Shown here one piece after another: positions 3,253 through 61,137 of a stretch of 64,000 nt of DNA; the first letter of the stretch is position 1; every line of letters begins with the position of its first letter. The stretch is taken from NCBI GenBank assembly GCA_963844965.1, contig CAWJQC010000007.1:224001-288000 (forward strand), in the 5' to 3' direction. The stretch comes from an uncultured bacterium. GTDB taxonomy: Bacteria > Patescibacteriota > Minisyncoccia > UBA6257 > 2-01-FULL-56-20. The translations under genes were made by a program, and so were the position numbers. The notes beneath the pieces were generated by a model. It saw only the letters and a program-made list of their open reading frames with translations. It did not search any database and was not told the origin of the DNA.

Positions 3253-4429
3253 ATGGACTACAAACAAGAACTTCAGGAGCTTGAGGCTGAAGCCCGGCGG
3301 TTAGCCGGGCGGCTTTGACGTAGCGGGCAAGGAGCGAGAGATAGAAAAGTTGGAAGCCGAAATGTCCAGCGCAGGTTTTTGGTCGGACCGTGCGGCGGCA
3401 GACGAGAAAATAAAAACTCTTGGCGAGTTGCGTGATTTGGTTGATAAGTTTCATGTGATCGAGACCGGAATCAAAGAATTAAACGAGAAGGATATTACTC
3501 CTGCGCCTCCGAATGCCTTATCTCACGGAGTTATACCTACTCCTATTTCAAAATCTAAAGAATTAAAGGATGAGGATTTTACTTTGGTGTCTCCGGATTC
3601 CCTATCACACGGAGTTATACCCACTCCAATTTCTAAAACTTCCAAATTTTTCGAAATAAAAAAGAAACTCAGAGACCTTGAACTGACCACACTTTTTACT
3701 GGCAGGTATGACAAGCAGGCGGCCGTGCTTTCGGTGTATCCGGGCGCGGGCGGCGATGATGCCGAAGATTGGGCGCGGATGCTCGCTGAAATGTATGAAA
3801 ATTACGCCAAACGCCGCGGCTGGCAGCATAAAATGATTGACGACAATCCGCGCTCGCGAACATTTGAAGTTCGCGGCGCCTACGCTTATGGTTATCTGAA
3901 GAAAGAAGCCGGCGTTCACCGGCTCGTCAGAATTTCGCCGTTCTCGGCGAAGAAACTGCGGCACACGTCGTTCGCTTTGGTTGAGGTCGTGCCGGATCTG
4001 CCACCGGTTGAAGAGGCCAAGCTGCAAATTCCGGAAAAAGATCTGAAGCTGGAGTTTTCGCGAGCGGGCGGGCCGGGCGGCCAGAATGTGAACAAAGTGG
4101 AAACGGCGGTGCGGATAGTACACTTACCGACGGGGCTCGCCGTGAGTTCCCGCGCCGAGCGGGCGCAGGCGCAGAACCGCGAGCGGGCAATGAAACTCCT
4201 GAAGGCCAAGATATTCCAGCTGATGGAAAAGAATCAGGTGAAGGAATTGAGTGAGCTTCGGGTAAAGGTGAAACCGGAGTGGGGTAATCAGATCCGTTCT
4301 TACGTTTTGAATCCTTACCAGTTGGTGAAAGATCACAGAACCGAGGCGGAAACCGTGAGAGTTCACGAGGTTCTTGCCGGTGATTTGGACTCATTCATTG
4401 AAGCAGAGGCGGAATCCGGGCTAACTTAA
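3253..4429 (+). CDS. prfB: Peptide chain release factor 2 with a programmed +1 ribosomal frameshift (join 3253..3315, 3317..4429)
   Basis: The zero-frame [24 protein letters not shown] ends at the canonical CTT TGA C shifty stop (3313-3319) with an upstream SD-like GGGCGG. The +1 frame then continues with the SPF and GGQ motifs. Confidence 0.9.
3522..3640 (+). repeat. Imperfect tandem repeat inside the prfB N-terminal domain (two copies of [12 protein letters not shown])
   Basis: TCACGGAGTTATACC(T/C)ACTCC(T/A)ATTTC repeated about 75 bp apart; lower-GC insertion of roughly 25-30 codons relative to typical RF2 length. Confidence 0.6.
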
Positions 4430-13169: not shown

Positions 13170-13179
13170 CGCGATGAAT

Positions 13180-13308
13180 CCCGTTAGAAATCCTGCCGGC
13201 AGGCAGGCGCGGACGCTTTTCCAATGACACACCTATTGAACGGTCGAAGTATGTTAAGCAACAACGGTAGGCGCGGAGTTTTTCCGTCCGCGTCCTATTT
13301 CTAACGGG
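13180..13308 (+). promoter_or_regulatory. Structured leader of pilC: inverted repeat CCCGTTAGAAAT...ATTTCTAACGGG ending at the start codon, plus nested GCGCGGACG/CGTCCGCG stem
   Basis: Arms at 13180-13191 and 13297-13308; the ATG at 13309 immediately follows. Confidence 0.5.
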
Positions 13309-28857: not shown

Positions 28858-30105
28858 ATGCTTCAATCCGAACTTTTCACCAAGGTTTCGCGGGACGCGC
28901 CCAGCGATGAAGCCGCTTTGAGCGCCAAACTGCTCACGCGGGCGGGATTTGTGAGTAAGGTGATGGCCGGCGTTTACGAGTTTATGCCGCTCGGTTTGCG
29001 CGTCTTGAACAAGATCAACGCCGTCATCCGCGACGAGATGGACAAAACGGGCGCGCAGGAAATTTTCATGTCCGTTTTGCAGAACAAGGAGACATGGGCG
29101 AAGAGCGGGCGGTGGGAAACGGCGAAAGACGTCATGTATCAATTCAAGGACGCTTCCGGCAAAGAAGTCGGTCTCGGCTGGACGCACGAGGAGCCGCTCA
29201 CGGTCGCTGCCAAGAAATATATAAGTTCCTATCGGGACTTGCCGCGCGCCGTCTACCAGATCCAGACGAAGTTCAGGAACGAACCGCGGGCGAAGTCCGG
29301 CCTTTTGCGCAGCAAGGAATTTTTAATGAAGGATTTGTATAGTTTCCACGCCAGCGAAGAATGCCTGAATAAATATTACGAGCGCGTTGCCGTCGCTTAC
29401 GGCAATATATTCAAGAGAATTGGTCTGAACGCGCTGCGCACGGTGGCTTCCGGCGGTCTGTTCTCAAAATATTCCGACGAATTCCAGGTGCTTTGCGACG
29501 CCGGCGAGGATACGATTTTCCATTGCGAGAATTGTCCTTATGCCGCCAATCTTGACGTAGCCGAAGAACTTAAACTTAAGAATAAATGTCCAGCCCGCCT
29601 GCCGGACGGGCAGGAATGCGGGGGAAAGATAAAAAAGGCGAAAAGCATAGAAGTCGGCAATATTTTCAAGCTGGGAACGAAGTTCTCGGAAGCGTTCGGC
29701 CTGACTTTTAAGGATGAAAAAGGCGCCGAAAAACCGGTGATTATGGCTTCATACGGCATAGGGCCGGGGAGAGTGCTAGCGACTATCGTGGAAATTCATC
29801 ATGACGAAGCGGGAATTATCTGGCCGGAGGCGGTCGCGCCCTTCCGGGTGCATTTATTGGAGCTTGGCGGTGCGAAGGGCGAAGAGTTGTACAAATCTTT
29901 ACAAAAAGGTGGAATTGACGTACTCTATGACACGAGAGACATGTCGGCGGGCGAGAAATTCGCCGAGGCCGATCTTATCGGAATTCCTTGGCGCGCAGTC
30001 GTAAGCCAGAAAACCGGCGACAAAGTGGAGATAAAAAAACGTGGCGAAAAGGAGACGAAGCTAATGGACGTCAAGGAAGTCATCAAACAAATAAGTAATT
30101 CGTAA
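28858..30105 (+). CDS. proS: Proline--tRNA ligase (short form without editing insertion)
   Basis: Class II aaRS motifs with ProRS-specific sequence and anticodon-binding domain; 415 aa. Confidence 0.9.
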   Translation: MLQSELFTKVSRDAPSDEAALSAKLLTRAGFVSKVMAGVYEFMPLGLRVLNKINAVIRDEMDKTGAQEIFMSVLQNKETWAKSGRWETAKDVMYQFKDASGKEVGLGWTHEEPLTVAAKKYISSYRDLPRAVYQIQTKFRNEPRAKSGLLRSKEFLMKDLYSFHASEECLNKYYERVAVAYGNIFKRIGLNALRTVASGGLFSKYSDEFQVLCDAGEDTIFHCENCPYAANLDVAEELKLKNKCPARLPDGQECGGKIKKAKSIEVGNIFKLGTKFSEAFGLTFKDEKGAEKPVIMASYGIGPGRVLATIVEIHHDEAGIIWPEAVAPFRVHLLELGGAKGEELYKSLQKGGIDVLYDTRDMSAGEKFAEADLIGIPWRAVVSQKTGDKVEIKKRGEKETKLMDVKEVIKQISNS

Positions 30106-52468: not shown

Positions 52469-54491
52469 ATGAAGAATACTTCCTGGACGGTGGGTGTTTT
52501 GGTGGTTTGTGTTTCTGTAAGTTTGCTTGCGGCGTCAAGCGCTTACGCGGCTACGCCGACGCTTTCGCTCGCGGTGACGAGCGGGGATTCTGTGCAGATA
52601 AACGTGATCGGCGATTCGAATTTTCCGGTCGTGTTTTATTACAATGTCGGCAGTTCTTCCGGAACGAACACAACGACGCTCGGTAGTACGAACTCCAGCG
52701 GCGTTTTTTCAACAACGATAAGCACGGGCGCGTACGCGATAAACTCCAGCTATCCGGTATATGTCGTAGTGGATGGTCAGCAGTCAGCTACACAAACCTG
52801 GCCTTACGGCGCCAGTACTTCCTCGGGTACAAGCGGTACGCCAGTACTCAGCCAGACAAGCGTTACGGTCGGTATCGGGCAGTCAGTGACCGTGACTTCG
52901 CAGGGAGGCAGCGGCATCTATTTGGTGTCCAATTCCAATTCTTCTGTGGCCGCCGCTTACGTATCTGGGACACAGGTTGTTGTTACCGGAAGCCAGCTGG
53001 GTTCAACGACAATGACAATCTGTTATGTGGGTACCGCTTCCAATTGCACGAATTTGTATGTGAATGTGCAGAGCGGAACCGTGCAGGCGCTCACGTTCAG
53101 CCCGAACAACATTTCCTTATCGGTCGGTGGCAGTCAATCTGTGACCATAAGCGGCGGGAGTGGAACGTATAGTTTGTCTTCCAATTCAAACTCCAGCGCC
53201 GTTTCCGTGAATTTATCGGGAAACACGCTTACGGTGACAGCCATCGCGGCCGGGAGCGCCAATATAACGGCATGCGACACGTCGGGAAATTGTAGTGTCT
53301 TATATGTGACGGTGGGCGGAAGCTCAACAAGCGGTTCCTTGTCTTTCAGCCAGACGAATCCGTCTATAGCGGTCGGACAGGTTATAAGCGTGAGTGTTTA
53401 CGGCGGAAGCGGCTATTACGTGTCCGCTAACACGAACTCCGGCATCGCCTCGCAAACGCTGAATGGCAACACACTCTCAATCTCTGGTCTGGCAGCCGGA
53501 GCGACGACGATCACCGTATGTTCGGCGGTGAACGGCTGCGGCTACCTTTATGTCACCGTCGGTTCGTCATCCGGCACGAGCCAGACAATTACTTTTAGCC
53601 AGACGAATCCGTCCATAGCGGTCGGACAGGTTATAAGCGTGAGTGTTTACGGCGGGAGCGGGTATTACGTAACGGGCAACACGAATTCCAGTGTCGCTTC
53701 GCAAGCCCTTAATGGGAGCATACTTTCCATCTCCGGATTGGCAAGTGGCGCCACGACTATCACGGTATGTTCCGTGGCTAATGGCTGTGGTTCGATTTAC
53801 GTCACGGTCGGTTCGTCGTCGGGCTCGAGTATGGCCATCACCTTTGGCACGACCAATCCCACTATTACAACGGGGCAAAGTATGAACATCTCGCTTTCTG
53901 GCGGTTCCGGTTATTTCGTTTCGTCTAATCCAAGTACGAATATTGCGCAGGCAAGCGTTACGGGCAATACGCTTGCGCTCTATGGCGTGGGCGTCGGCTC
54001 CGATTCGCTTACGATTTGCGCGAGTTCCGGCGGCTGCAACACGCTTTACGTCACAGCTGACAAGCGTGACGACCGTTCCGACCACCACGCAGACACAGCA
54101 AACAGTTGTTTCGAGCGCTTGGATAACCGAGATCCAGACAATGCAGACCCAGCTCACAAATATCCTCGCCCAAATCCAAACTTTACAAAGTAACCTTGCA
54201 AATCTTCTTACGCAAGTTACCGCCGGCGCGCAAAGTCCAAGCGTAAGTGGCACGACGACCGCGCAATCCAGCGGCTATAAATTCTACAGCCCGCTCTCGC
54301 TTGGCTCGAGCGGCGCAGACGTCACGGCATTGCAGACCCTCTTGGCCGCGAAGGGATATTACACTGGTTCCATAACCGGTTACTACGGTACGGCGACGAT
54401 GGACGCGGTGATGGAATACCAGACGGCTCATGGTATCACGCCGCTCGGCAACGTGGGTCCCGCCACCCGCGCGGCGCTGAACGCGGAATAA
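52469..54491 (+). CDS. Large secreted surface protein: signal peptide, multiple Ig-like repeats, Thr/Gln-rich coiled-coil linker, C-terminal peptidoglycan-binding domain; 1-nt frameshift near 54050
   Basis: Tandem near-identical ~80-aa repeats; C-terminal GADVTALQTLLAAKGYYTGSITGYYGTATMDAVMEYQ matches PG_binding_1, but only in the overlapping ORF 53943..54491. Confidence 0.7.
53320..53830 (+). repeat. Near-identical ~246-bp tandem duplication encoding Ig-like domains
   Basis: Blocks starting about 53335 and 53580 share more than 90% nucleotide identity. Confidence 0.7.
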
Positions 54492-54597: not shown

Positions 54598-55692
54598 ATG
54601 ATCAAATATTTATCAAGAACAAATCCCAGACTTCTTCAAGGCACGGCGCTCCTGCGGCTTGACTTCAACACGGAAGACGACTGGCGGATGCGGGCGGTTT
54701 TGCTGACAGTCCGCTTTTTATTAAAATACGCCTCAAAGATTATTATCGTAAGCCACAGGGGGCGGCCAAAGGGCCGCGACAAGAAATTCAGCCTGAAAGG
54801 AAGCGGTTTGCGCCTGCAAAAACTTCTGGGCCGCCGGGTTAAGTTCGTGCCGGACTTAAACTTCGCTTATATTAAGAAGGCAGTCGCTGATTCGCCGCAC
54901 GGCTCCATTGTTCTTTTGGAGAATTTGAGATTTTGGAAGGGGGAGGAGGCGAATGATTCGAAGTTCGCGAAACAATTGGCGTTGCTTGCCGATTATTTTG
55001 TGAACGACGCGTTCGCGGTTTCGCATCGGGCGAACGCTTCGGTCGCGGCAATCACGAAATTCCTGCCGAGTTATGCCGGGCTTGAATTGGAAAGGGAGAT
55101 CAAGTTCCTCGGGGGCGTGATGCGCCATCCACGCCATCCGTTTGTTTTTGTCGTAGGCGGGGCGAAAGCAAGCGACAAGCTCGGAGTTATGAAATATTTC
55201 AGAAGCAAGGTCGATTGGTTCCTTGTCGGCGGCGCTGCGGGAAATACGGTTCTCGCCCTTAAAGGAATGGGTATGAAAAAATCTCTTAGGGACAAGGACA
55301 AAAAAGATTTAAAAGGACTACGCGGGATTCTGAGGTATGAGAATGTTATATTGCCTGTGGATTTGAAATGGCATAACGGCGCCGCGCTTGATATCGGTCC
55401 GAGGACAATCGGAGCGTTCACCGGGAAAATCCGCCGCGCGAGAACTATAATTTGGAGCGGTCCGGTCGGCTATTTTGAGAAGCGCGGTTTTGACAAGGGG
55501 AATCTTGCGGTAGCGCGCGCGATAGCGGCGAACCGCAAGGCGTTCAAGCTCACCGGTGGCGGCGAAACGGTGATGTTCCTAAAGAAACACCATTTAGATA
55601 AGAAGTTTAGTTTTATTTCAACCGGCGGGGGAGCAATGCTTGATTTTTTAGCCGGAAAAAAACTTCCTGGGATAGAGGCATTAAGTAAATGA
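54598..55692 (+). CDS. pgk: Phosphoglycerate kinase
   Basis: N-domain VSHRGRPKG and hinge/C-domain motifs; TATAAT at 54579-54584 upstream; the ORF track start (54562) lies inside the upstream terminator, so ATG 54598 is preferred. Confidence 0.85.
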   Translation: MIKYLSRTNPRLLQGTALLRLDFNTEDDWRMRAVLLTVRFLLKYASKIIIVSHRGRPKGRDKKFSLKGSGLRLQKLLGRRVKFVPDLNFAYIKKAVADSPHGSIVLLENLRFWKGEEANDSKFAKQLALLADYFVNDAFAVSHRANASVAAITKFLPSYAGLELEREIKFLGGVMRHPRHPFVFVVGGAKASDKLGVMKYFRSKVDWFLVGGAAGNTVLALKGMGMKKSLRDKDKKDLKGLRGILRYENVILPVDLKWHNGAALDIGPRTIGAFTGKIRRARTIIWSGPVGYFEKRGFDKGNLAVARAIAANRKAFKLTGGGETVMFLKKHHLDKKFSFISTGGGAMLDFLAGKKLPGIEALSK

Positions 55693-56316
55693 AAAGTTTA
55701 TATAAAAAAGTGGCATTGGAATTAGCGGAAAAGGCGGGTAAAACTATGCTTGCTTATTTTACATTGGGGATGAAAAAGAATTGGAAAGAAGACAACACCC
55801 CCGTTACCGCAGCCGACATTGAAATTAACAAACTCGTTATCAAAACCATCCGCAAGAATTTTCCTGATCACGACGTGCTTGGCGAAGAGTTGAGCGATAT
55901 GAAAAGAGGAAGCGAGATGGTGTGGGTGTGCGATCCGATTGACGGCACAATCCCGTTTTCTCATGGGATTCCAACGAGCACCTTCTCGCTTGCGCTTGTT
56001 TGGCGCGGGAAGCCGATTATGGGCGTTGTTTATGACCCATTTCTCAAAAGAATGTTTTTTGCAGAGAAAGGCGGAGGCGCATTTCTCTGTAGCAAGAGAA
56101 TATACGTGAATTCGAAAAAAGAATTGCGGAGCTCTCTCGTAGGTATGGAGGTATGGAGGGAGGCACAATTCAATTTATCCCCGCTTCAGATAGCCATGAA
56201 GAACGAGGGCGCAAAAATAATCATTCCTTGCTCGACGGCGTATATGGGAATGCTTGTTGCGTGTGGCGAAGCCTCGGCAAGCATTTTTCCGGGATCTACC
56301 GCGCACGATGGCGCCG
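55689..56316 (+). pseudogene. Inositol monophosphatase-family protein (SuhB-like), 3' end truncated by the IS insertion
   Basis: WVCDPIDGT metal-binding motif; sequence is homologous up to the WDxAAG-equivalent (HDGAV) and is then replaced by IS-derived sequence from 56317. Confidence 0.7.
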
Positions 56317-56376
56317 TGAAAAGGACCCTTTTCTTTAGACAGTCATTCGACGATTTTTTCGCCGATTTTTTTCACT

Positions 56377-57162
56377 TTACCACGCCGCTAACTGCTCGGC
56401 AAACACGACTGGCGGCATCTTGAGGGCGGAGTGGATCCGCGTGTGGTTGTACTGCCACAAGGTGCTGTAGATCTCCGCCACGAGCTCGCCGAAGGTCCCG
56501 AACCGGTTGGGATCACCGAGGTCAATCTTGAACTTGTCATAGAACGATTCCTGGTAGCCGTTTTCCCATGGGGCACCGGGCCGCGACCGCGAGATCGTGA
56601 TGCCACAGTCCCCCAGTGTATCGGTGAACGCTCGTGCCTTGTACTCGCTGCCGTTGTCCGAATGGAAGATGACCGGATGCGGATGGTGGAAAAGCGCGTT
56701 GGCCAGGGTCTGTATCGTGAGGGGCGATCCTTTCCGCAACGCCACATGGACGCCCATCAATCGTCTCGTGAAAAGATCGAGTATCGTGGACACGTACACT
56801 TTCTTGCCGCGATACAGGAACTCCGTGAAATCGGTTGCCCAGACGTGGTTCGCGTACGAGGGCATGATGGCAAGTAAGAGGTTCGGAAAGGCCCGCGATG
56901 CCTTTGATTTCCGGTATTTCCTGCCTCGCCTCCGGTACGGCCTTATGCCGAAGATTCGCATGACGCGCTGCGCTCGCGGACGGCTCACGCCCAGAGCTTG
57001 TCCCAAGCGCCGGGAACCGTATGCCGGATGGCGCTGCAATTCTTCTTCCATGCGGATCTTGAGCGCCCAATCTTTCTTGTCCTGCCGTGATACGTAGTAG
57101 AGCGATGCCCGCGAGACGCCCATGGCCCGCGCCATGGCGGACTTGTTCCGCTTTTCCGTCAA
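56377..57162 (-). CDS. IS3-family transposase OrfB (DDE integrase core)
   Basis: rve-type DDE motifs including HSDNGSEY; in the -1 frame relative to orfA at CAAAAAAAG. Confidence 0.85.
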   Translation of the reverse strand: MTEKRNKSAMARAMGVSRASLYYVSRQDKKDWALKIRMEEELQRHPAYGSRRLGQALGVSRPRAQRVMRIFGIRPYRRRGRKYRKSKASRAFPNLLLAIMPSYANHVWATDFTEFLYRGKKVYVSTILDLFTRRLMGVHVALRKGSPLTIQTLANALFHHPHPVIFHSDNGSEYKARAFTDTLGDCGITISRSRPGAPWENGYQESFYDKFKIDLGDPNRFGTFGELVAEIYSTLWQYNHTRIHSALKMPPVVFAEQLAAW

Positions 57163-57422
57163 TTCTTTTTTTGGGCCTGGGAGAGCTTCACGGTGAGCTC
57201 GCCCACCACTTCAAACAGCTCCCTGTTCTGCTTCTGGAGACGGCTGAACTCGCCCCAGGAAGGGACGCCCGATGCTCCTGCGCCTAGCCAATTGTAGATG
57301 GTGGACTCGTGCAAACCGTGGTCCTTCGCAGCCTGCGCTACGGGGACTCCTTCTTCCTTCACCCGGCGGAGGATGTCCGCCTTCACTTCCTTCGCAATCC
57401 GATGCCCTTTTTTGTTGCTCAT
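57159..57422 (-). CDS. IS3-family transposase OrfA (HTH)
   Basis: Helix-turn-helix (AQAAKDHGLHESTIYNW); ends LSQAQKKN at the slippery site. Confidence 0.85.
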   Translation of the reverse strand: MSNKKGHRIAKEVKADILRRVKEEGVPVAQAAKDHGLHESTIYNWLGAGASGVPSWGEFSRLQKQNRELFEVVGELTVKLSQAQKKN

Positions 57423-57436
57423 GACACAATGGTAGT

Positions 57437-57769
57437 TTGTTTCGACCTTTGTGTCTAAATTACGGGGTCCGGGTCAAAACAAAAGAGGTCGTCAGAGTCC
57501 TCTCGAAGGCCGGCTTCACGCAACAGGAGATACTTGATGCCATCTGGAACGCCGACTTTGTAAAAGATGAGAACGGCGGAGCCGTCGTGAACGCCATGTA
57601 CGAAGCAAAGATTCCGGTCGCCGATATCGTCGGAGTGCTTATGAGGGAAAAGATCGATCCCGACGACCTCGACGGCGAAATGGGCGGAGAAGAAGTTGAC
57701 ACGCGCACCCGCGTTGAGATTCTCCATTCGCTCTTTGAGGCGATTGACGGCGAGAAAGAGACAGCTTAA
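57437..57769 (+). CDS. Hypothetical acidic small protein; annotated start lies inside the IS terminal repeat
   Basis: 110-aa ORF; true start is probably downstream of 57476. Confidence 0.3.
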   Translation: MFRPLCLNYGVRVKTKEVVRVLSKAGFTQQEILDAIWNADFVKDENGGAVVNAMYEAKIPVADIVGVLMREKIDPDDLDGEMGGEEVDTRTRVEILHSLFEAIDGEKETA

Positions 57770-57859
57770 TTTTTCCACGATTACCACCAGGCCGCATATT
57801 CATATCTGCGGCCATTTTCTTTTGGTTTGAATCAGAAGTCGCTTCTCTTTCTTTATTCT

Positions 57860-57938
57860 CCGCGGAGCCATTTTTCATTTTCCGCCCGCACTGCCTACCT
57901 TCTCTAATTTTTGCCAAAGGCGGACAAGCCTGCCTGCC
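57860..57938 (+). repeat. Intergenic repeat copy A (~79 bp), promoter-proximal to the metallopeptidase gene
   Basis: About 85% identical to copy B at 58476-58553; a partial third copy lies at 59371-59400. Confidence 0.65.
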
Positions 57939-57964
57939 TCCGGCGGGAATGGTAGAATAAGCTT

Positions 57965-58369
57965 ATGCTGAAATTGGGGCGGGATGAATTTGAGAAAATC
58001 GTAGAGGAAGGAATACATGCGGTTCCGGAAAAGTTTTTACAGAAGTTGGATAACGTGGCGATCGTGATCGACGAGGAACCGACGCCGGCCCAGAAAAAGA
58101 AGCTGAATATCCATCCAAACTGGACACTCTTCGGCTTATACGAAGGCGTGCCGCAGGTATCGCGAGGGGCGAACTATACCGCTGTGCTTCCCGATAAAAT
58201 AACTATTTTCCAAAAGCCGATCGAAGACGAGGCCGTGGATAAGGAAGACATTAAAAAGATGGTGAGGGATACGGTTTGGCATGAAATTGCCCACCATTTT
58301 GGCATGGACGAATCCCGCGTGCGTGAAGCCGAAGCCAGAAGGCGAAAGCTCCGCGGCAGCGCGAAATAG
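57965..58369 (+). CDS. Small zinc metallopeptidase-family protein (HExxH; DUF1025-like)
   Basis: HEIAHHFG motif; 134 aa. Confidence 0.65.
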   Translation: MLKLGRDEFEKIVEEGIHAVPEKFLQKLDNVAIVIDEEPTPAQKKKLNIHPNWTLFGLYEGVPQVSRGANYTAVLPDKITIFQKPIEDEAVDKEDIKKMVRDTVWHEIAHHFGMDESRVREAEARRRKLRGSAK

Positions 58370-58414
58370 GCGAATGGAGGAAACCGGTCAACCCCGAACA
58401 ACCCCGCCAAATAA

Positions 58415-58456
58415 ACCATTCCAACATTCTGCAGAATGTTGGAATGATGTTTTTCA
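58415..58456 (+). terminator. 28-bp perfect palindrome (ATTCCAACATTCTG|CAGAATGTTGGAAT) plus T-run
   Basis: Perfect hairpin centred on CTGCAG, followed by GATGTTTTT. Confidence 0.6.
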
Positions 58457-58475
58457 GCCCCGCCCTCCTGCCCCT

Positions 58476-58553
58476 CCGCGGAGCCGTTTTCATTTTCCGC
58501 TCATGCCGTTTACCTTCTCTAATTTCCGTCAAAGGCGGACAAGTCTGCCTGCC
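58476..58553 (+). repeat. Intergenic repeat copy B (~78 bp)
   Basis: CCGCGGAGCC(A/G)TTTTCATTTTCCGC...CCTTCTCTAATTT...AAAGGCGGACAAG(C/T)CTGCCTGCC shared with copy A. Confidence 0.65.
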
Positions 58554-58631
58554 CTTGGCATGGCCTCTGGAGGGAGCCACATCGTCTTGGCTTGTCTTTT
58601 TTCCCCGCGACGAGAGTGGTAAAATAGTTCT

Positions 58632-59296
58632 ATGAAAAAATCATCACTTATAGCGGTGGTCGCGGTTGCCGTCGTTGCCGTCATCTCCGCCGTTCTCATG
58701 TTCAGGAACGCGCCGGCTCCGCCGGAGACCTCGCCGGTCGCGCCACAGAATCTTCAGCCCGCAACCGCGCCATCCGCGCCTTCGTCGAGCGCGGATCGCA
58801 AACCCAAACGCAAAACATGGAACATTTAATTACGCTCAGAACCACCATGGGCGATATCCAATTCGGGACCTACGACTCGGACGCTCCGAATACGGTGAAC
58901 AACTTCATCACGCTCGCGCAAAAAGGATTTTATAACAACGTCATTTTTCACCGCGTCATCAAGGGATTTATGATACAAGGCGGCGACCCTACGGGAACCG
59001 GCACGGGAGGTCCGGGGTACTCCTTTGCGGACGAACTCAATCCCGCGACGCCTTCTTACCAGGCGGGATACAAGAAGGGCGTGGTCGCGATGGCGAACGC
59101 CGGACCGAACACGAACGGCAGCCAATTTTTCATCATGCTTGCCGATTATCCGCTGGACCATAACTATACGATCTTCGGCAAGGTGGTGGCCGGACAGGGC
59201 GTCGTGGACGCGATCGGCGATCTTCCGACCGACGCGAACGACAGGCCTCTGCAACCGCCGGCGATAAAGAGCGTTGTCGTGGAAGTTGCGAAGTAG
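58632..59296 (+). CDS. ppiB: Secreted cyclophilin-type peptidyl-prolyl cis-trans isomerase; signal peptide plus Pro/Ala linker (58632-58829) is in a different frame from the catalytic domain (58817-59296)
   Basis: Catalytic-domain motifs FHRVIKGFMIQGGDP and NGSQFFI; the upstream ORF encodes a typical signal peptide and ends 13 nt into the domain ORF near an A-rich tract. Confidence 0.75.
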
Positions 59297-59463
59297 GGGA
59301 CATCCTCTTTTCGTTTTGAGTCGGTCGTAAGCAATCAGAAATTCAAAACTATCTCTCTACCCCTCGTGCCGGCCAGGTCTGCCTGTCGGTAGGCGGGCAC
59401 AGAATTGAGGTTGTTATACTCGTATGGTATGTTTAATTCATATAAATTAAACCCCATACATAC

Positions 59464-59865
59464 ATGCTTAAAGAGTTCAAACAGTTTTTGCTTCGGGGAA
59501 ATGTCGTTGATCTGGCGGTCGGAGTCGTCGTCGGCGCGGCTTTTGGCACGGTCGTTACCGCTCTTGTTTCGGACCTCCTAACCCCGTTCATCGCGGCCAT
59601 CATCAAGGTACCGGATTTTAGCGGCCTTGCGTTTACGATCAACGGCAGTAAGTTCATGTACGGCCATCTTATAAACGCCGTCATCTCGTTCATGCTTGTC
59701 GCGGCCGCCATTTTTTTCTTCGTGGTCAAACCGATAAATGTGCTCATCGCCCGATCCCGCAAAGAGCCTCCGGCGGATCCCACCACGAAAAAATGCAAAG
59801 AATGTCTGAGTGAGATCCCTATTGAAGCCAAACGCTGTTCGCACTGCGCGCAGTTGGTTGTCTAA
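59464..59865 (+). CDS. mscL: Large-conductance mechanosensitive channel
   Basis: Canonical N-terminus FKEFKQFLLRGNVVDLAVGVVVGAAF; two TM segments; C-terminal CxxC pairs. Confidence 0.9.
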   Translation: MLKEFKQFLLRGNVVDLAVGVVVGAAFGTVVTALVSDLLTPFIAAIIKVPDFSGLAFTINGSKFMYGHLINAVISFMLVAAAIFFFVVKPINVLIARSRKEPPADPTTKKCKECLSEIPIEAKRCSHCAQLVV

Positions 59866-59971
59866 ATAAGAACCTGAAATTTTTTCTCCGCCCTTCGCGC
59901 CGAAACAAGCGGCGCTCGCGCTGGGAAGGGAACTTGAACTTCTGAATCCAGCGTAGCGCGATAGGCTCATA

Positions 59972-60012: not shown

Positions 60013-61137
60013 CTAATCTATTGTCTGTGTTTCTAAAGGCGGCTCCGTTTGGCTTTGGACGACATCAAACCTCAGCTGGCCGATGACGCCGCCGTCCGGC
60101 GTTTCCACGTTCACGCGCCACTCACCGGGTGTTACATATGATATCGTAGAGAAGGTCCGGTAGCCGCGCTCGTTTCCGCCGACGACGGAGAGCGCAATGC
60201 GGCTGCGGGTTGACCAGATGCCTTTCGCCTGGTCGTAGTACTGCCACTCGTGGACGATATCCGTGTTCAGAGCGGTCGGAGAGAACACGGCAGTATAGGC
60301 GTAAAGCGCGTCGCCCGCGACAATATGCGTCGTTTGATCCCAGTTGAGGAGACCGAACAGATCAAAGCCGTGCTTTTCGCTGGTCACCGTGTAATTGCCG
60401 GGTCCGTTCGCGACGAGAGAGTGATAGACAGCCCCGTCTTCCAAAGAAAGCGGCAGGGGCGGAATGAGATTCAGGAAGTAAAGCGTGTTCACCCCTGCGA
60501 GGATGAATACTATCGCGGCGACGGCCAGACGTCTGCTTCTTGCCGTGAAATTTTCGCGCAAGATGATGCGGAAGATGAAGAAGAGGACGCGGATAGCCGC
60601 CACGCTAACAACACCGCTCAAGATAAATATCCAGGGACCGATCCTGTGGAGTAGGATTGGCACGAGGTATATCGCGAAAGCATAATAGGCGAGGAAGAGC
60701 AGTGAGATCTGGAAGGAAATGCGGGCGTAGTGGCGCTTGAGCGATTCGTTGGCCACGAAGGCGGCCGCGAGGAGCAGAAGGAACGGCCAGCTCGCGGTTA
60801 TCGCGGAGCTGCGGAAATAAAAAACCAGGTATGTTGAGAGAATGCCGCCGAAAAAGAATTGCATCACGTTCACGAGCCAGAAGCGCAGCTTCTGCGGGTT
60901 TGCCTCGGGGCGCACGCCGCTCTCGTCGGCAGTATCGTCCAAAATATTTAGCCAAATGGCGCAGACGGTGACGATGGTTAGGTGCGCGACGACCCAGAAA
61001 TTTTCCCAGAACATGTCCACGCGGTGTAGCGTCAGGGCGTCAAAGACGAATCCGCCTATGAGCGAAAAGGAAGAGAGCGGCCGTTCGTAGCGTCCGTACC
61101 AGCTCCTTGCGCGCGCAAAAATGGATCCAGCCGACAT
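60013..61137 (-). CDS. Hypothetical polytopic membrane protein with a C-terminal extracytoplasmic domain
   Basis: 374 aa; about eight TM helices followed by a soluble beta-rich domain. Confidence 0.55.
   Translation of the reverse strand: MSAGSIFARARSWYGRYERPLSSFSLIGGFVFDALTLHRVDMFWENFWVVAHLTIVTVCAIWLNILDDTADESGVRPEANPQKLRFWLVNVMQFFFGGILSTYLVFYFRSSAITASWPFLLLLAAAFVANESLKRHYARISFQISLLFLAYYAFAIYLVPILLHRIGPWIFILSGVVSVAAIRVLFFIFRIILRENFTARSRRLAVAAIVFILAGVNTLYFLNLIPPLPLSLEDGAVYHSLVANGPGNYTVTSEKHGFDLFGLLNWDQTTHIVAGDALYAYTAVFSPTALNTDIVHEWQYYDQAKGIWSTRSRIALSVVGGNERGYRTFSTISYVTPGEWRVNVETPDGGVIGQLRFDVVQSQTEPPLETQTID

Follow-up and report, generated by a model that had tools for sequence, protein, structure and literature searches.

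The repetitive extragenic palindromic (REP) sequences and bacterial interspersed mosaic elements (BIMEs) of Enterobacteria and Pseudomonas are short, imperfect intergenic palindromes that form mosaics and often lie just after stop codons, where their hairpins can end or stabilise transcripts. The Correia elements of Neisseria (CREE/NEMIS) have inverted-repeat ends that lend -10 or -35 boxes to neighbouring genes, and they form long hairpins when transcribed. Here we describe an intergenic repeat in a 64-kb stretch of DNA from an uncultured bacterium of the Patescibacteriota (contig CAWJQC010000007.1, positions 224,001 to 288,000; hereafter the window, to which all coordinates refer unless a contig is named). 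The repeat is represented by two neighbouring copies, A and B, the first upstream of a zincin-type metallopeptidase gene and the second upstream of a membrane-anchored cyclophilin gene. With moderate confidence, we favour the explanation that A and B are copies of a mosaic, promoter-carrying intergenic element present in a group of related Patescibacteria (Paceibacteria-like). An original prediction, made from the window sequence, had read the repeat either as a promoter-bearing dispersed repeat of REP/BIME type or as the binding site of a shared regulator, with a partial third copy before the mscL gene.

The predicted identity of about 85% between A (57860–57938) and B (58476–58553) was borne out by alignment, in which 66 of 79 columns were identical (83.5%) with one 1-nt indel, and a repeat search of the window returned the pair as 67 nt at 84%. 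The 23-mer AAAGGCGGACAAGYCTGCCTGCC was found at A and B only, with 0 occurrences expected in shuffles of the 64-kb window, and the blocks TTTTCATTTTCCGC and TACCTTCTCTAATTT likewise had exact matches in A and B only. For comparison we used contigs, designated by L-numbers, that were fetched as encoding close homologs of the zincin or the cyclophilin or were met in exact-pattern scans. An nhmmer profile of A, B and the related metagenome contig L056, together with alignments, showed that the homology is longer than 80 bp, running from about 57826 to 57960 in A and from about 58447 to 58575 in B (+ strand; nhmmer E 9e-34 for B), with the two copies 615 nt apart. The profile by itself delimited it to 57827–57959 and 58449–58574. 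Copy A is composed of a 5' half (57826–57897, + strand), with the start GAATCAGAAG, the CTCCGCGGAGCC block, the TTTTCATTTTCCGC block and a variable patch, and a 3' half (57898–57960, + strand), an imperfect palindromic element supported by nhmmer, RNAfold and the L056 alignment. Reading along the + strand, the 3' half opens with the 5' arm CCTTCTCTAATTT and continues with hairpin 1 (TTGCC-AAA-GGCGG, 57911–57923), hairpin 2 (CCTGCC-TCC-GGCGGG, 57933–57947) and the 3' arm GAATGGTAGAAT (57947–57958), inside which lies an extended -10 box, TGGTAGAAT (57950–57958). The 3' arm also contains GTAG (57952–57955), the complement of which is located at 57895–57898. Copy B has the same 5' half, a 5' arm TCTAATT (58518–58524) and hairpin 1, and its hairpin 2 and 3' arm are degraded. 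Neither nhmmer nor a covariance model found a further copy of the A/B unit anywhere in the window, and GC-rich hairpins at 2730–2768, 13177–13256 and 29571–29629 gave only marginal scores (E 0.03–0.5) in the profile searches.

To set the conservation of the two halves against a neutral standard, we used the four-fold degenerate sites of the flanking genes, which were 0.69–0.74 identical when the window was compared with L056. Against L056, the 3' half of A (57898–57960) had 7 mismatches in 63 aligned positions (89% identity; binomial P ~0.001, computed under the four-fold-site divergence), and on this comparison the 3' palindrome appears to be functional. In the 5' half of A there were 24 mismatches in 67 positions (64% identical), which is the neutral level. 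In two conserved blocks of this same half, A and B are nevertheless almost exact copies of each other (26 of 27 by hand count), and near-identity between halves that diverge at the neutral rate points to recent duplication or gene conversion. The 5' half therefore looks like passenger sequence lately copied or converted between A and B.

The near-identity of the two 5' halves despite neutral evolution would also be expected if a rearrangement had copied one intergenic region along with its promoter, giving a local segmental duplication with no role of its own and no wider family. Only two copies are present in 64 kb, 615 nt apart; the gene order is permuted relative to L056, with a truncated remnant after mscL; an IS3 element lies ~350 nt upstream; and exact-pattern scans of public collections did not find the full unit, all of which fit such an event. 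We nonetheless regard it as an unlikely explanation of the whole pattern. Homologous units stand at two loci in relatives (before the zincin gene in L056 and before the cyclophilin gene in L067), the arm architecture recurs with different centres in L061, L056, L060 and L067, and more loosely in L025, the 3' half is conserved above four-fold sites, and the core is shared with L003, a contig from another genus.

The palindromic form of the 3' half is apparent in its profile, which hits its own reverse complement (nhmmer, E 0.0035), and in its predicted fold, a single long hairpin in A (RNAfold, -22.9 kcal/mol, z -2.5). Long hairpins in A, in L056, in the element upstream of the zincin gene in L067 and in one L061 copy had z values of -2.2 to -3.9, and in these folds the A/T-rich arms pair and enclose the GC-rich hairpins; copy B folded without a long hairpin (z -0.8). 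The consensus fold of the homologs consists of two small hairpins, in which the variation is all one-sided (G-U). Hairpins 1 and 2 might, then, be the functional folds of a structured RNA transcribed from the + strand, either a cis-regulatory leader or a small RNA. This would suit the substitutions in the 5' strands of both hairpins, all of them between C and U and compatible with G-C or G-U pairing in the + strand alone, as well as the terminator-like hairpin and T-run after B and the constraint on the 3' half. Such an RNA is, however, highly improbable in our judgement, given that Rfam returned no meaningful match at E<=10, that zero pairs showed a compensatory double change, that no promoter-like site was seen upstream of B, where a GC-rich stretch follows a strong terminator, and that the centres are not conserved across the family. 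In addition, element A lies upstream of the only plausible -10 box, which would place it outside the zincin mRNA.

That box, TGGTAGAAT, is a perfect extended -10 and ends 6 nt before the ATG at 57965 of the zincin gene (Zincin_1, PF06262, metallopeptidase family; 57965–58369, + strand; Pfam E 2.6e-28), which occupies the interval between A and B and has homologs in Patescibacteria. Names attached to proteins in public sources likewise place the organism among the Patescibacteria, with relatives labelled Paceibacterota and similar. The same TAnAAT-N4-9-start geometry precedes several other genes of the window and zincin orthologs elsewhere. Judging from this placement, the 3' arm of copy A is a putative zincin promoter, and the zincin mRNA would be leaderless. 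Downstream of B, the extended -10 box TGGTAAAAT (58617–58625, + strand) stands 6 nt before the ATG at 58632, so that a -10-like box does follow each of the two copies, as first predicted. In the L056 spacer, GAATGGTAGAAT and a similar box, GAATTGGTAAAAT, lie 41 nt apart, the second being followed by 6 nt and the ATG. Copy A lacks the intervening 41 nt, suggesting that the element's own arm became the promoter-proximal box. In both L056 and L067, GAATTGGTAAAAT lies 6 nt before the ATG, as TGGTAGAAT does in copy A, and the terminus of the element may itself serve as a promoter. The GC-rich hairpin, for its part, may act as a terminator or stabiliser on read-through transcripts; the terminator reading fits L056, where a T-run begins 3 nt after the long hairpin and the promoter of the next gene lies immediately beyond.

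Units homologous to A and B occur at orthologous loci in relatives. In L056 and L057, whose zincin is 90% identical to that of the window, the order is mscL, a 174-nt spacer, the zincin gene and a convergent DUF2914 gene. The L056 spacer can be aligned to the whole of A, beginning just past the mscL stop codon and reaching the -10 region, and it aligns to B as well; the 5' half of A is homologous to L056 401–468. In L067 and L068, whose cyclophilin is 87% identical, the spacer upstream of the cyclophilin gene holds the 5' half (nhmmer E 6.5e-5), with the 5' half of B matching L067 539–588. Next to it in L067 are TCTAATTCC and, beyond a different centre, GAATAGGAGAATAG; farther downstream lies GTGCTAAAATAGTTC, the counterpart of the copy B promoter box TGGTAAAAT. 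Upstream of the zincin gene, the same contig has TTCTTTAATCC, a 38-nt perfect CCTG/CAGG palindrome and GAATTGGTAAAAT, then 6 nt and the ATG. The presence of units upstream of the zincin gene in L056 and of the cyclophilin gene in L067 indicates that both positions predate the split of the lineages. Gene order has changed among these genomes, being zincin-cyclophilin-mscL in the window, mscL-zincin in L056 and cyclophilin-radical SAM-zincin in L067. Directly after the mscL stop codon in the window we found a remnant, D (59866–59902, + strand), which preserves ~35 nt from the start of the unit (AAGAACCTGAAA...TCTCCGCCCTTCGCGCCG), and BLASTN likeness to L056 accordingly runs ~33 nt beyond that stop codon. 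Since the first ~35 nt of the L056 spacer are left behind mscL, the window order appears to be a rearrangement of the same pieces. More distantly, L003, a metagenome-assembled genome contig of Candidatus Paceibacter (another genus), has the core in an intergenic region upstream of an unrelated gene (nhmmer E 2e-4) and shares with the A/B unit a CCAAAGGCGG flank, the 19-mer core, a perfect CCTGCCTGCC/GGCAGGCAGG hairpin and an ATGGTAG flank. No such element was found in the zincin relatives L026–L029, L058–L059 and L062–L065, and L025 has no element upstream of its zincin gene, only a looser arm pair downstream.

The orthologous units also bear on the proposal that the repeat is the operator of a transcription factor shared by the zincin, cyclophilin and mscL genes, bound either at CTCCGCGGAG or at TCCGC/GCGGA half-sites. 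Within the window the idea has some appeal, because CTCCGCGGAG is exact in A and B only, several TCCGC/GCGGA motifs fall within 90 nt, and both copies lie upstream of promoters. The palindrome is not kept in the relatives, however, where CTGCGCCGGCC replaces it in L056 and CTCGCGCCGCC in L067, and it lies in the 5' half, whose divergence is at the neutral level. Copies A and B are set at distances from their -10 boxes that are 54 nt different, the candidate copy before mscL has neither CTCCGCGGAG nor the TCCGC/GCGGA motifs, and the spacing of the arms is highly variable; from one copy of the family to another the arm-to-arm distance ranges from 4 to ~80 nt, which a folded hairpin fits better than a dimeric protein site does. 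With its only clean palindrome lost in L056 and L067 and its arm spacing so variable, the shared-regulator site that had been offered as one of two readings found no support, and we hold it to be very improbable indeed.

Beyond the A/B unit, TCTAATT ... GAAT-N4-GAAT arms recur in L061, L056, L060 and L067, and a looser form, TAATTCCG ... CGGAATTCTGGTAGGAT, occurs in L025. The TCTAATT(C/T) and GAAT-N4-GAAT arms are inverted repeats common to A, L056, L060, L061 and L067; they are imperfect, and their internal mismatch is itself conserved (CTA vs GGT). The centres differ fully between copies, except for A and B and for the L061 copies at 2897 and 4171. The family is densest in L061 (4.2 kb; zincin 83% identical), which contains 7 TCTAATTC and 7 GAAT-N4-GAAT motifs, with ~0.1–0.3 expected by chance (our own estimate). 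In this contig GGTCTAATTC(G/C), at positions 40, 2149, 2193, 2897, 3458 and 4171, is present in 4 of the 5 spacers between genes and also before the first full gene, and 6 of the 7 TCTAATTC motifs are co-oriented with the genes. The L061 elements continue with a centre that varies and is mostly GC-rich, and then with a 3' arm that contains GAAT; two copies have the full GAATAGGAGAAT, and the minimal form is a perfect palindrome, TCTAATTCGCGCGAATTAGA. Compared with the 7 GAAT-N4-GAAT motifs of L061, L056 has 3 and the 955-bp L060 has 2. In L056 and L060 a short version of the element comes after the stop codon of the zincin gene, as does a looser version in L025. Repeats of another kind occupy the spacers of some relatives: L058 (1422–1750), L062–L065 downstream of the zincin gene and L067 (1623–1830) contain runs of CCTTCGAC...GCTCAGGAC-type intergenic repeats, and L058 and L062–L065 are related Patescibacteria contigs without the TCTAATT family. 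Different lineages thus seem to carry different spacer repeats.

An architecture of conserved arms around varying centres, with the potential to fold into hairpins, is also what would be expected of a mobile, non-autonomous element of REP or miniature inverted-repeat (MITE) type, whose folded arms would be read by a transposase encoded elsewhere (e.g. a RAYT-like Y1 enzyme) and for which promoter capture would be secondary. The high density in L061, where a tandem pair lies at 2145–2250, the near-identical centres at L061 2897 and 4171, the CTAC...GTAG pair that closes both A and the candidate copy C, and the ~430 nt found in L067 between arms that are ~36 nt apart in L025 could all be explained by mobility. 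Against this, no target-site duplication was visible at the copies in L061, L056 or the window, and a Pfam scan of 39 window ORFs (open reading frames) found no PF01797 protein or other candidate enzyme, the only transposase being that of the IS3 element, whose ends are unrelated. The copies, moreover, nearly always share the orientation of the genes and fall after a stop codon and ahead of the next promoter, a pattern that suggests selection for function more than random insertion. We consider a mobile element improbable as the primary explanation.

Under the explanation that we favour, a promoter-carrying mosaic element, the constrained 3' half comprises an A/T-rich 5' arm of the type ATTC-N4-ATTC (TTCTCTAATT), a variable, GC-rich centre, often with CCTG/CAGG repeats, that form one or two hairpins, and a 3' arm of the type GAAT-N4-GAAT (GAATGGTAGAAT here) that would double as an extended -10 promoter, TGnTAnAAT. 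On read-through from the upstream gene, the hairpin may act as a terminator, an insulator or a 3'-end stabiliser, and the unit as a whole would be a compact terminator-plus-promoter spacer between genes. Historically, the copies upstream of the zincin and cyclophilin genes would predate the species split, A and B would have been homogenised within this genome by recent duplication or gene conversion, and recombination at or between units plausibly went along with the changes in the order of zincin, cyclophilin and mscL. It is conceivable, if doubtful, that the units are portable terminator-plus-leaderless-promoter spacers whose arms (ATTC-N4-ATTC / GAAT-N4-GAAT) are read by a dedicated enzyme, and that recombination moves single-gene cassettes between them. 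If true, this would account for the shuffled gene order among close relatives with tiny genomes.

Several observations weigh against the promoter-carrying mosaic element. Within the window the family is not dispersed, its two neighbouring copies forming one locus. The hairpin of copy A is not followed by a U-tract, a clear layout of hairpin and T-run terminator is seen in L056 only, and separate terminator-like hairpins precede both A and B, so that a terminator role is not needed there. Copy B is without the 3' arm and has a separate promoter box 54 nt farther on, showing that the promoter-in-arm layout is not universal. One L061 copy folds poorly, and no compensatory pair change was found among the homologs in the two small hairpins. 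The link from A and B to the L061-type elements runs through the short arms and the L067 intermediate, with no significant full-length alignment. Finally, target-site duplications were not seen at the L061, L056 or window copies, the exact ends of the elements being uncertain, and the Pfam scan of the 39 window ORFs yielded no transposase associated with the element. As to the prediction of a promoter-bearing dispersed repeat, the repeated intergenic family and the extended -10 box in its arm were upheld, and dispersal within the window was not. The homologous units in relatives and the extended -10 box in the 3' arm make the comparison with REP/BIME-type elements a reasonable one.

The third copy that had been placed before mscL (59371–59400) was not confirmed as a homolog. 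This candidate, C (59344–59412, + strand), is a weak, degenerate one identified by alignment only. It contains TATCTCTCTACC, a CTGCCTG hairpin closed by CTACC/GGTAG, AGAATTG and an TGTTATACT box, and shares with the other copies an exact 9-mer, GTCTGCCTG, and ~65% identity over ~40 nt (hand count on the alignment). Neither the nhmmer profile of A, B and L056 nor a covariance model trained without C and run with filters off recovered it at E<=10, and it scored only when included in the training set. The resemblance of C to A and B is therefore one of layout only, consisting of a pyrimidine-rich 5' arm, a GC-rich hairpin, GAATTG and TGTTATACT.

The surrounding gene map was assembled from sequence reading, a terminator scan and a Pfam scan. 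Upstream of A are a 110-aa ORF without annotation (57437–57769) and, between this ORF and A, a hairpin with a T-run (sequence reading, terminator scan). Farther upstream, ~350 nt from A, is an IS3-family element on the - strand (Pfam; orfA 57159–57422, orfB 56377–57162). The IS3 element truncates an inositol-monophosphatase gene (region 55689–57480; Pfam profile positions 6–214 of 271 matched), and it may be linked to local rearrangement near copy A. Between the zincin gene and B, the terminator scan identified a perfect 13-bp hairpin, CATTCCAACATTC-TGCA-GAATGTTGGAATG, followed by a T-run (58417–58446, + strand; -18.4 kcal/mol, z -6.9), which we read as a terminator-like site for the zincin gene. 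The arms of this hairpin show the GAAT-N4-GAAT form, like the 3' arm of the element. A hairpin of the form CATTCCAACATTC-N4-GAATGTTGGAATG with a T-run recurs in L061 (1–30 and 4098–4127), indicating conservation between genomes, and in the window and L061 alike it lies immediately upstream of a TCTAATT element. The scan also found a short terminator-like hairpin, GAGCCA...TGGCTT, followed by GTCTTTTTTC (58574–58602, + strand), which separates B from the next promoter.

The cyclophilin gene (58632–59296, + strand; Pfam Pro_isomerase) is read from two ORFs, 58632–58829 and 58817–59296, split by a 1-nt frameshift near 58790–58797, where GCGGATCG is present and GCGGGATCG would mend the frame. The two ORFs, one of 65 aa with the membrane anchor and one of 159 aa with the cyclophilin, belong to a single gene, for the L067 protein aligns over both, and cyclophilin homologs are mostly single proteins of 200–280 aa. 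Either the frameshift is real, and the gene is split or a pseudogene, or the assembly has an error at a homopolymer. Of the gene positions first assigned to the copies, that of A before the zincin gene therefore stands, and that of B directly before the annotated cyclophilin ORF does not, as the 65-aa N-terminal ORF intervenes. Downstream, mscL (59464–59865, + strand; Pfam MscL E 1e-36) encodes a protein with a C-terminal zinc-ribbon tail, 94% identical to the product of the partial L056 gene, and is followed by a convergent DUF2914 gene (60013–61137, - strand).

Exact-pattern scans of genome, metagenome and viral collections produced one credible extra relative, L003. The 19-mer core GGCGGACAAGNCTGCCTGCC was matched at 24 places in species-representative genomes and 26 in a metagenome collection, most of which encode the GHTHGGQVCLP motif of metallophosphoesterases or sit in unrelated GC-rich hairpins, and the 5'-half pattern had 0 matches in the metagenome scan. 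We accordingly considered whether the core is a pseudogene fragment, because its + strand reads K-G-G-Q-V-C-L-P, and rejected this, since tblastn of the metallophosphoesterase proteins against the region matched only 13–15 residues and the indel between A and B shifts the reading frame. Noncoding hairpins that contain GGCGGACAAGNCTGCCTGCC were seen in L019 (751–770) and L014 (6763–6782), both Bacteroidota, in L008 (1933–1952; Acidobacteria) and in L043 (9340–9359), a high-GC contig. The closing stems of these cross-phylum hairpins differ (CCTACCGGC/GCCGGTAGG, GTGTGGGGC/GCCCCACAC and GCTGGCGG/CCGCCAGC), and the matches are probably due to chance, the pattern being self-complementary and GC-rich and the sequence searched exceeding 1 Tb. 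The CTACC...GGTAG closure in L019 resembles that of A and C. Plasmid or phage origin was rejected as well: there was no BLASTN match in plasmid and phage collections, the core patterns found nothing in viral contigs, and the arm patterns matched only AT-rich phage sequences without a GC-rich centre, probably coding. TIGR arrays were likewise rejected, because the units here are single and lie between genes, not in tandem arrays.

Other repeats were observed elsewhere in the window. The 10-mer CCCGTTAGAA and its complement form two intergenic inverted pairs ~110 nt apart (11801/11910 and 13180/13299), with unrelated interiors and no Rfam match. They flank a pair of type IV pilus ATPase (T2SSE) genes, and could represent paired operators or a further small element. 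The last ~17 nt of tRNA-Thr (2396–2467) recur at 2600–2616, and up to ~2780 the sequence is rich in G and C and contains hairpins of CCTGCCGGCAGG type as well as GGTTCGACTCC, which resembles a T-arm; ARAGORN and Rfam found nothing beyond tRNA-Thr in 2396–2780. Two tandem direct repeats, one of 249 nt at 79% identity (53343–53840) and one of 84 nt at 80% identity (3473–3640), both fall inside long ORFs on a crude ORF map.

Literature searches returned no description of an element such as this one, and little is known about transcription signals and repeats in bacteria of the candidate phyla radiation, which are mostly uncultured. If confirmed, the unit would provide a sequence model for how their very small genomes fit a transcript end together with a leaderless promoter into a single short spacer, would establish that spacers of this kind undergo duplication and homogenisation, and could be used as a marker for local gene shuffling between relatives.

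Of the known integron and terminator systems, attC sites can be set aside, as neither strand of A, B or C or of their surroundings contained GTTRRRY, and no tyrosine recombinase was among the window ORFs scanned by Pfam. Intrinsic (Rho-independent) terminators, which in compact genomes can overlap the promoter of the next gene, resemble the element in its GC-rich hairpin flanked by A/T-rich arms and, in L056, in the T-run that precedes the promoter; copy A, however, lacks a T-run, and the arms here are conserved between unrelated loci and genomes, unlike those of ordinary terminators. The likeness to REP/BIME sequences lies in the extragenic, imperfect palindromes that can form stem-loops, with all copies intergenic, and in the mosaic of modules, which are here the 5' half, the CCAACATTC hairpin and the TCTAATT element. 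REP/BIME sequences and this family show no similarity in sequence, and they differ in other ways. REPs are conserved as a whole, whereas here the arms are conserved and the centre varies, this variable centre and the length of 20 to ~105 nt being atypical of REPs; REP/BIME copies alternate in orientation, whereas these are almost always co-oriented with the genes; GTAG is located 5' of the hairpin in REPs and inside the 3' arm here; and the 3' arm here carries the -10 box. The family also has just two copies at one locus in the 64-kb window, in contrast to its density in the relative L061, and no RAYT (Y1/HUH, PF01797) appeared in the Pfam scan of 39 ORFs from the 64-kb window. Correia elements share with the family a small intergenic size, inverted-repeat ends, a terminus with a predicted -10 box and a long hairpin, but their copies are alike over the whole 100–155 bp and are flanked by a TA duplication, whereas the centres differ here and no duplication was seen. 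Hairpin-forming, promoter-donating intergenic repeats are thus a familiar theme and not a new principle, and the family described here is a modest new example of it.

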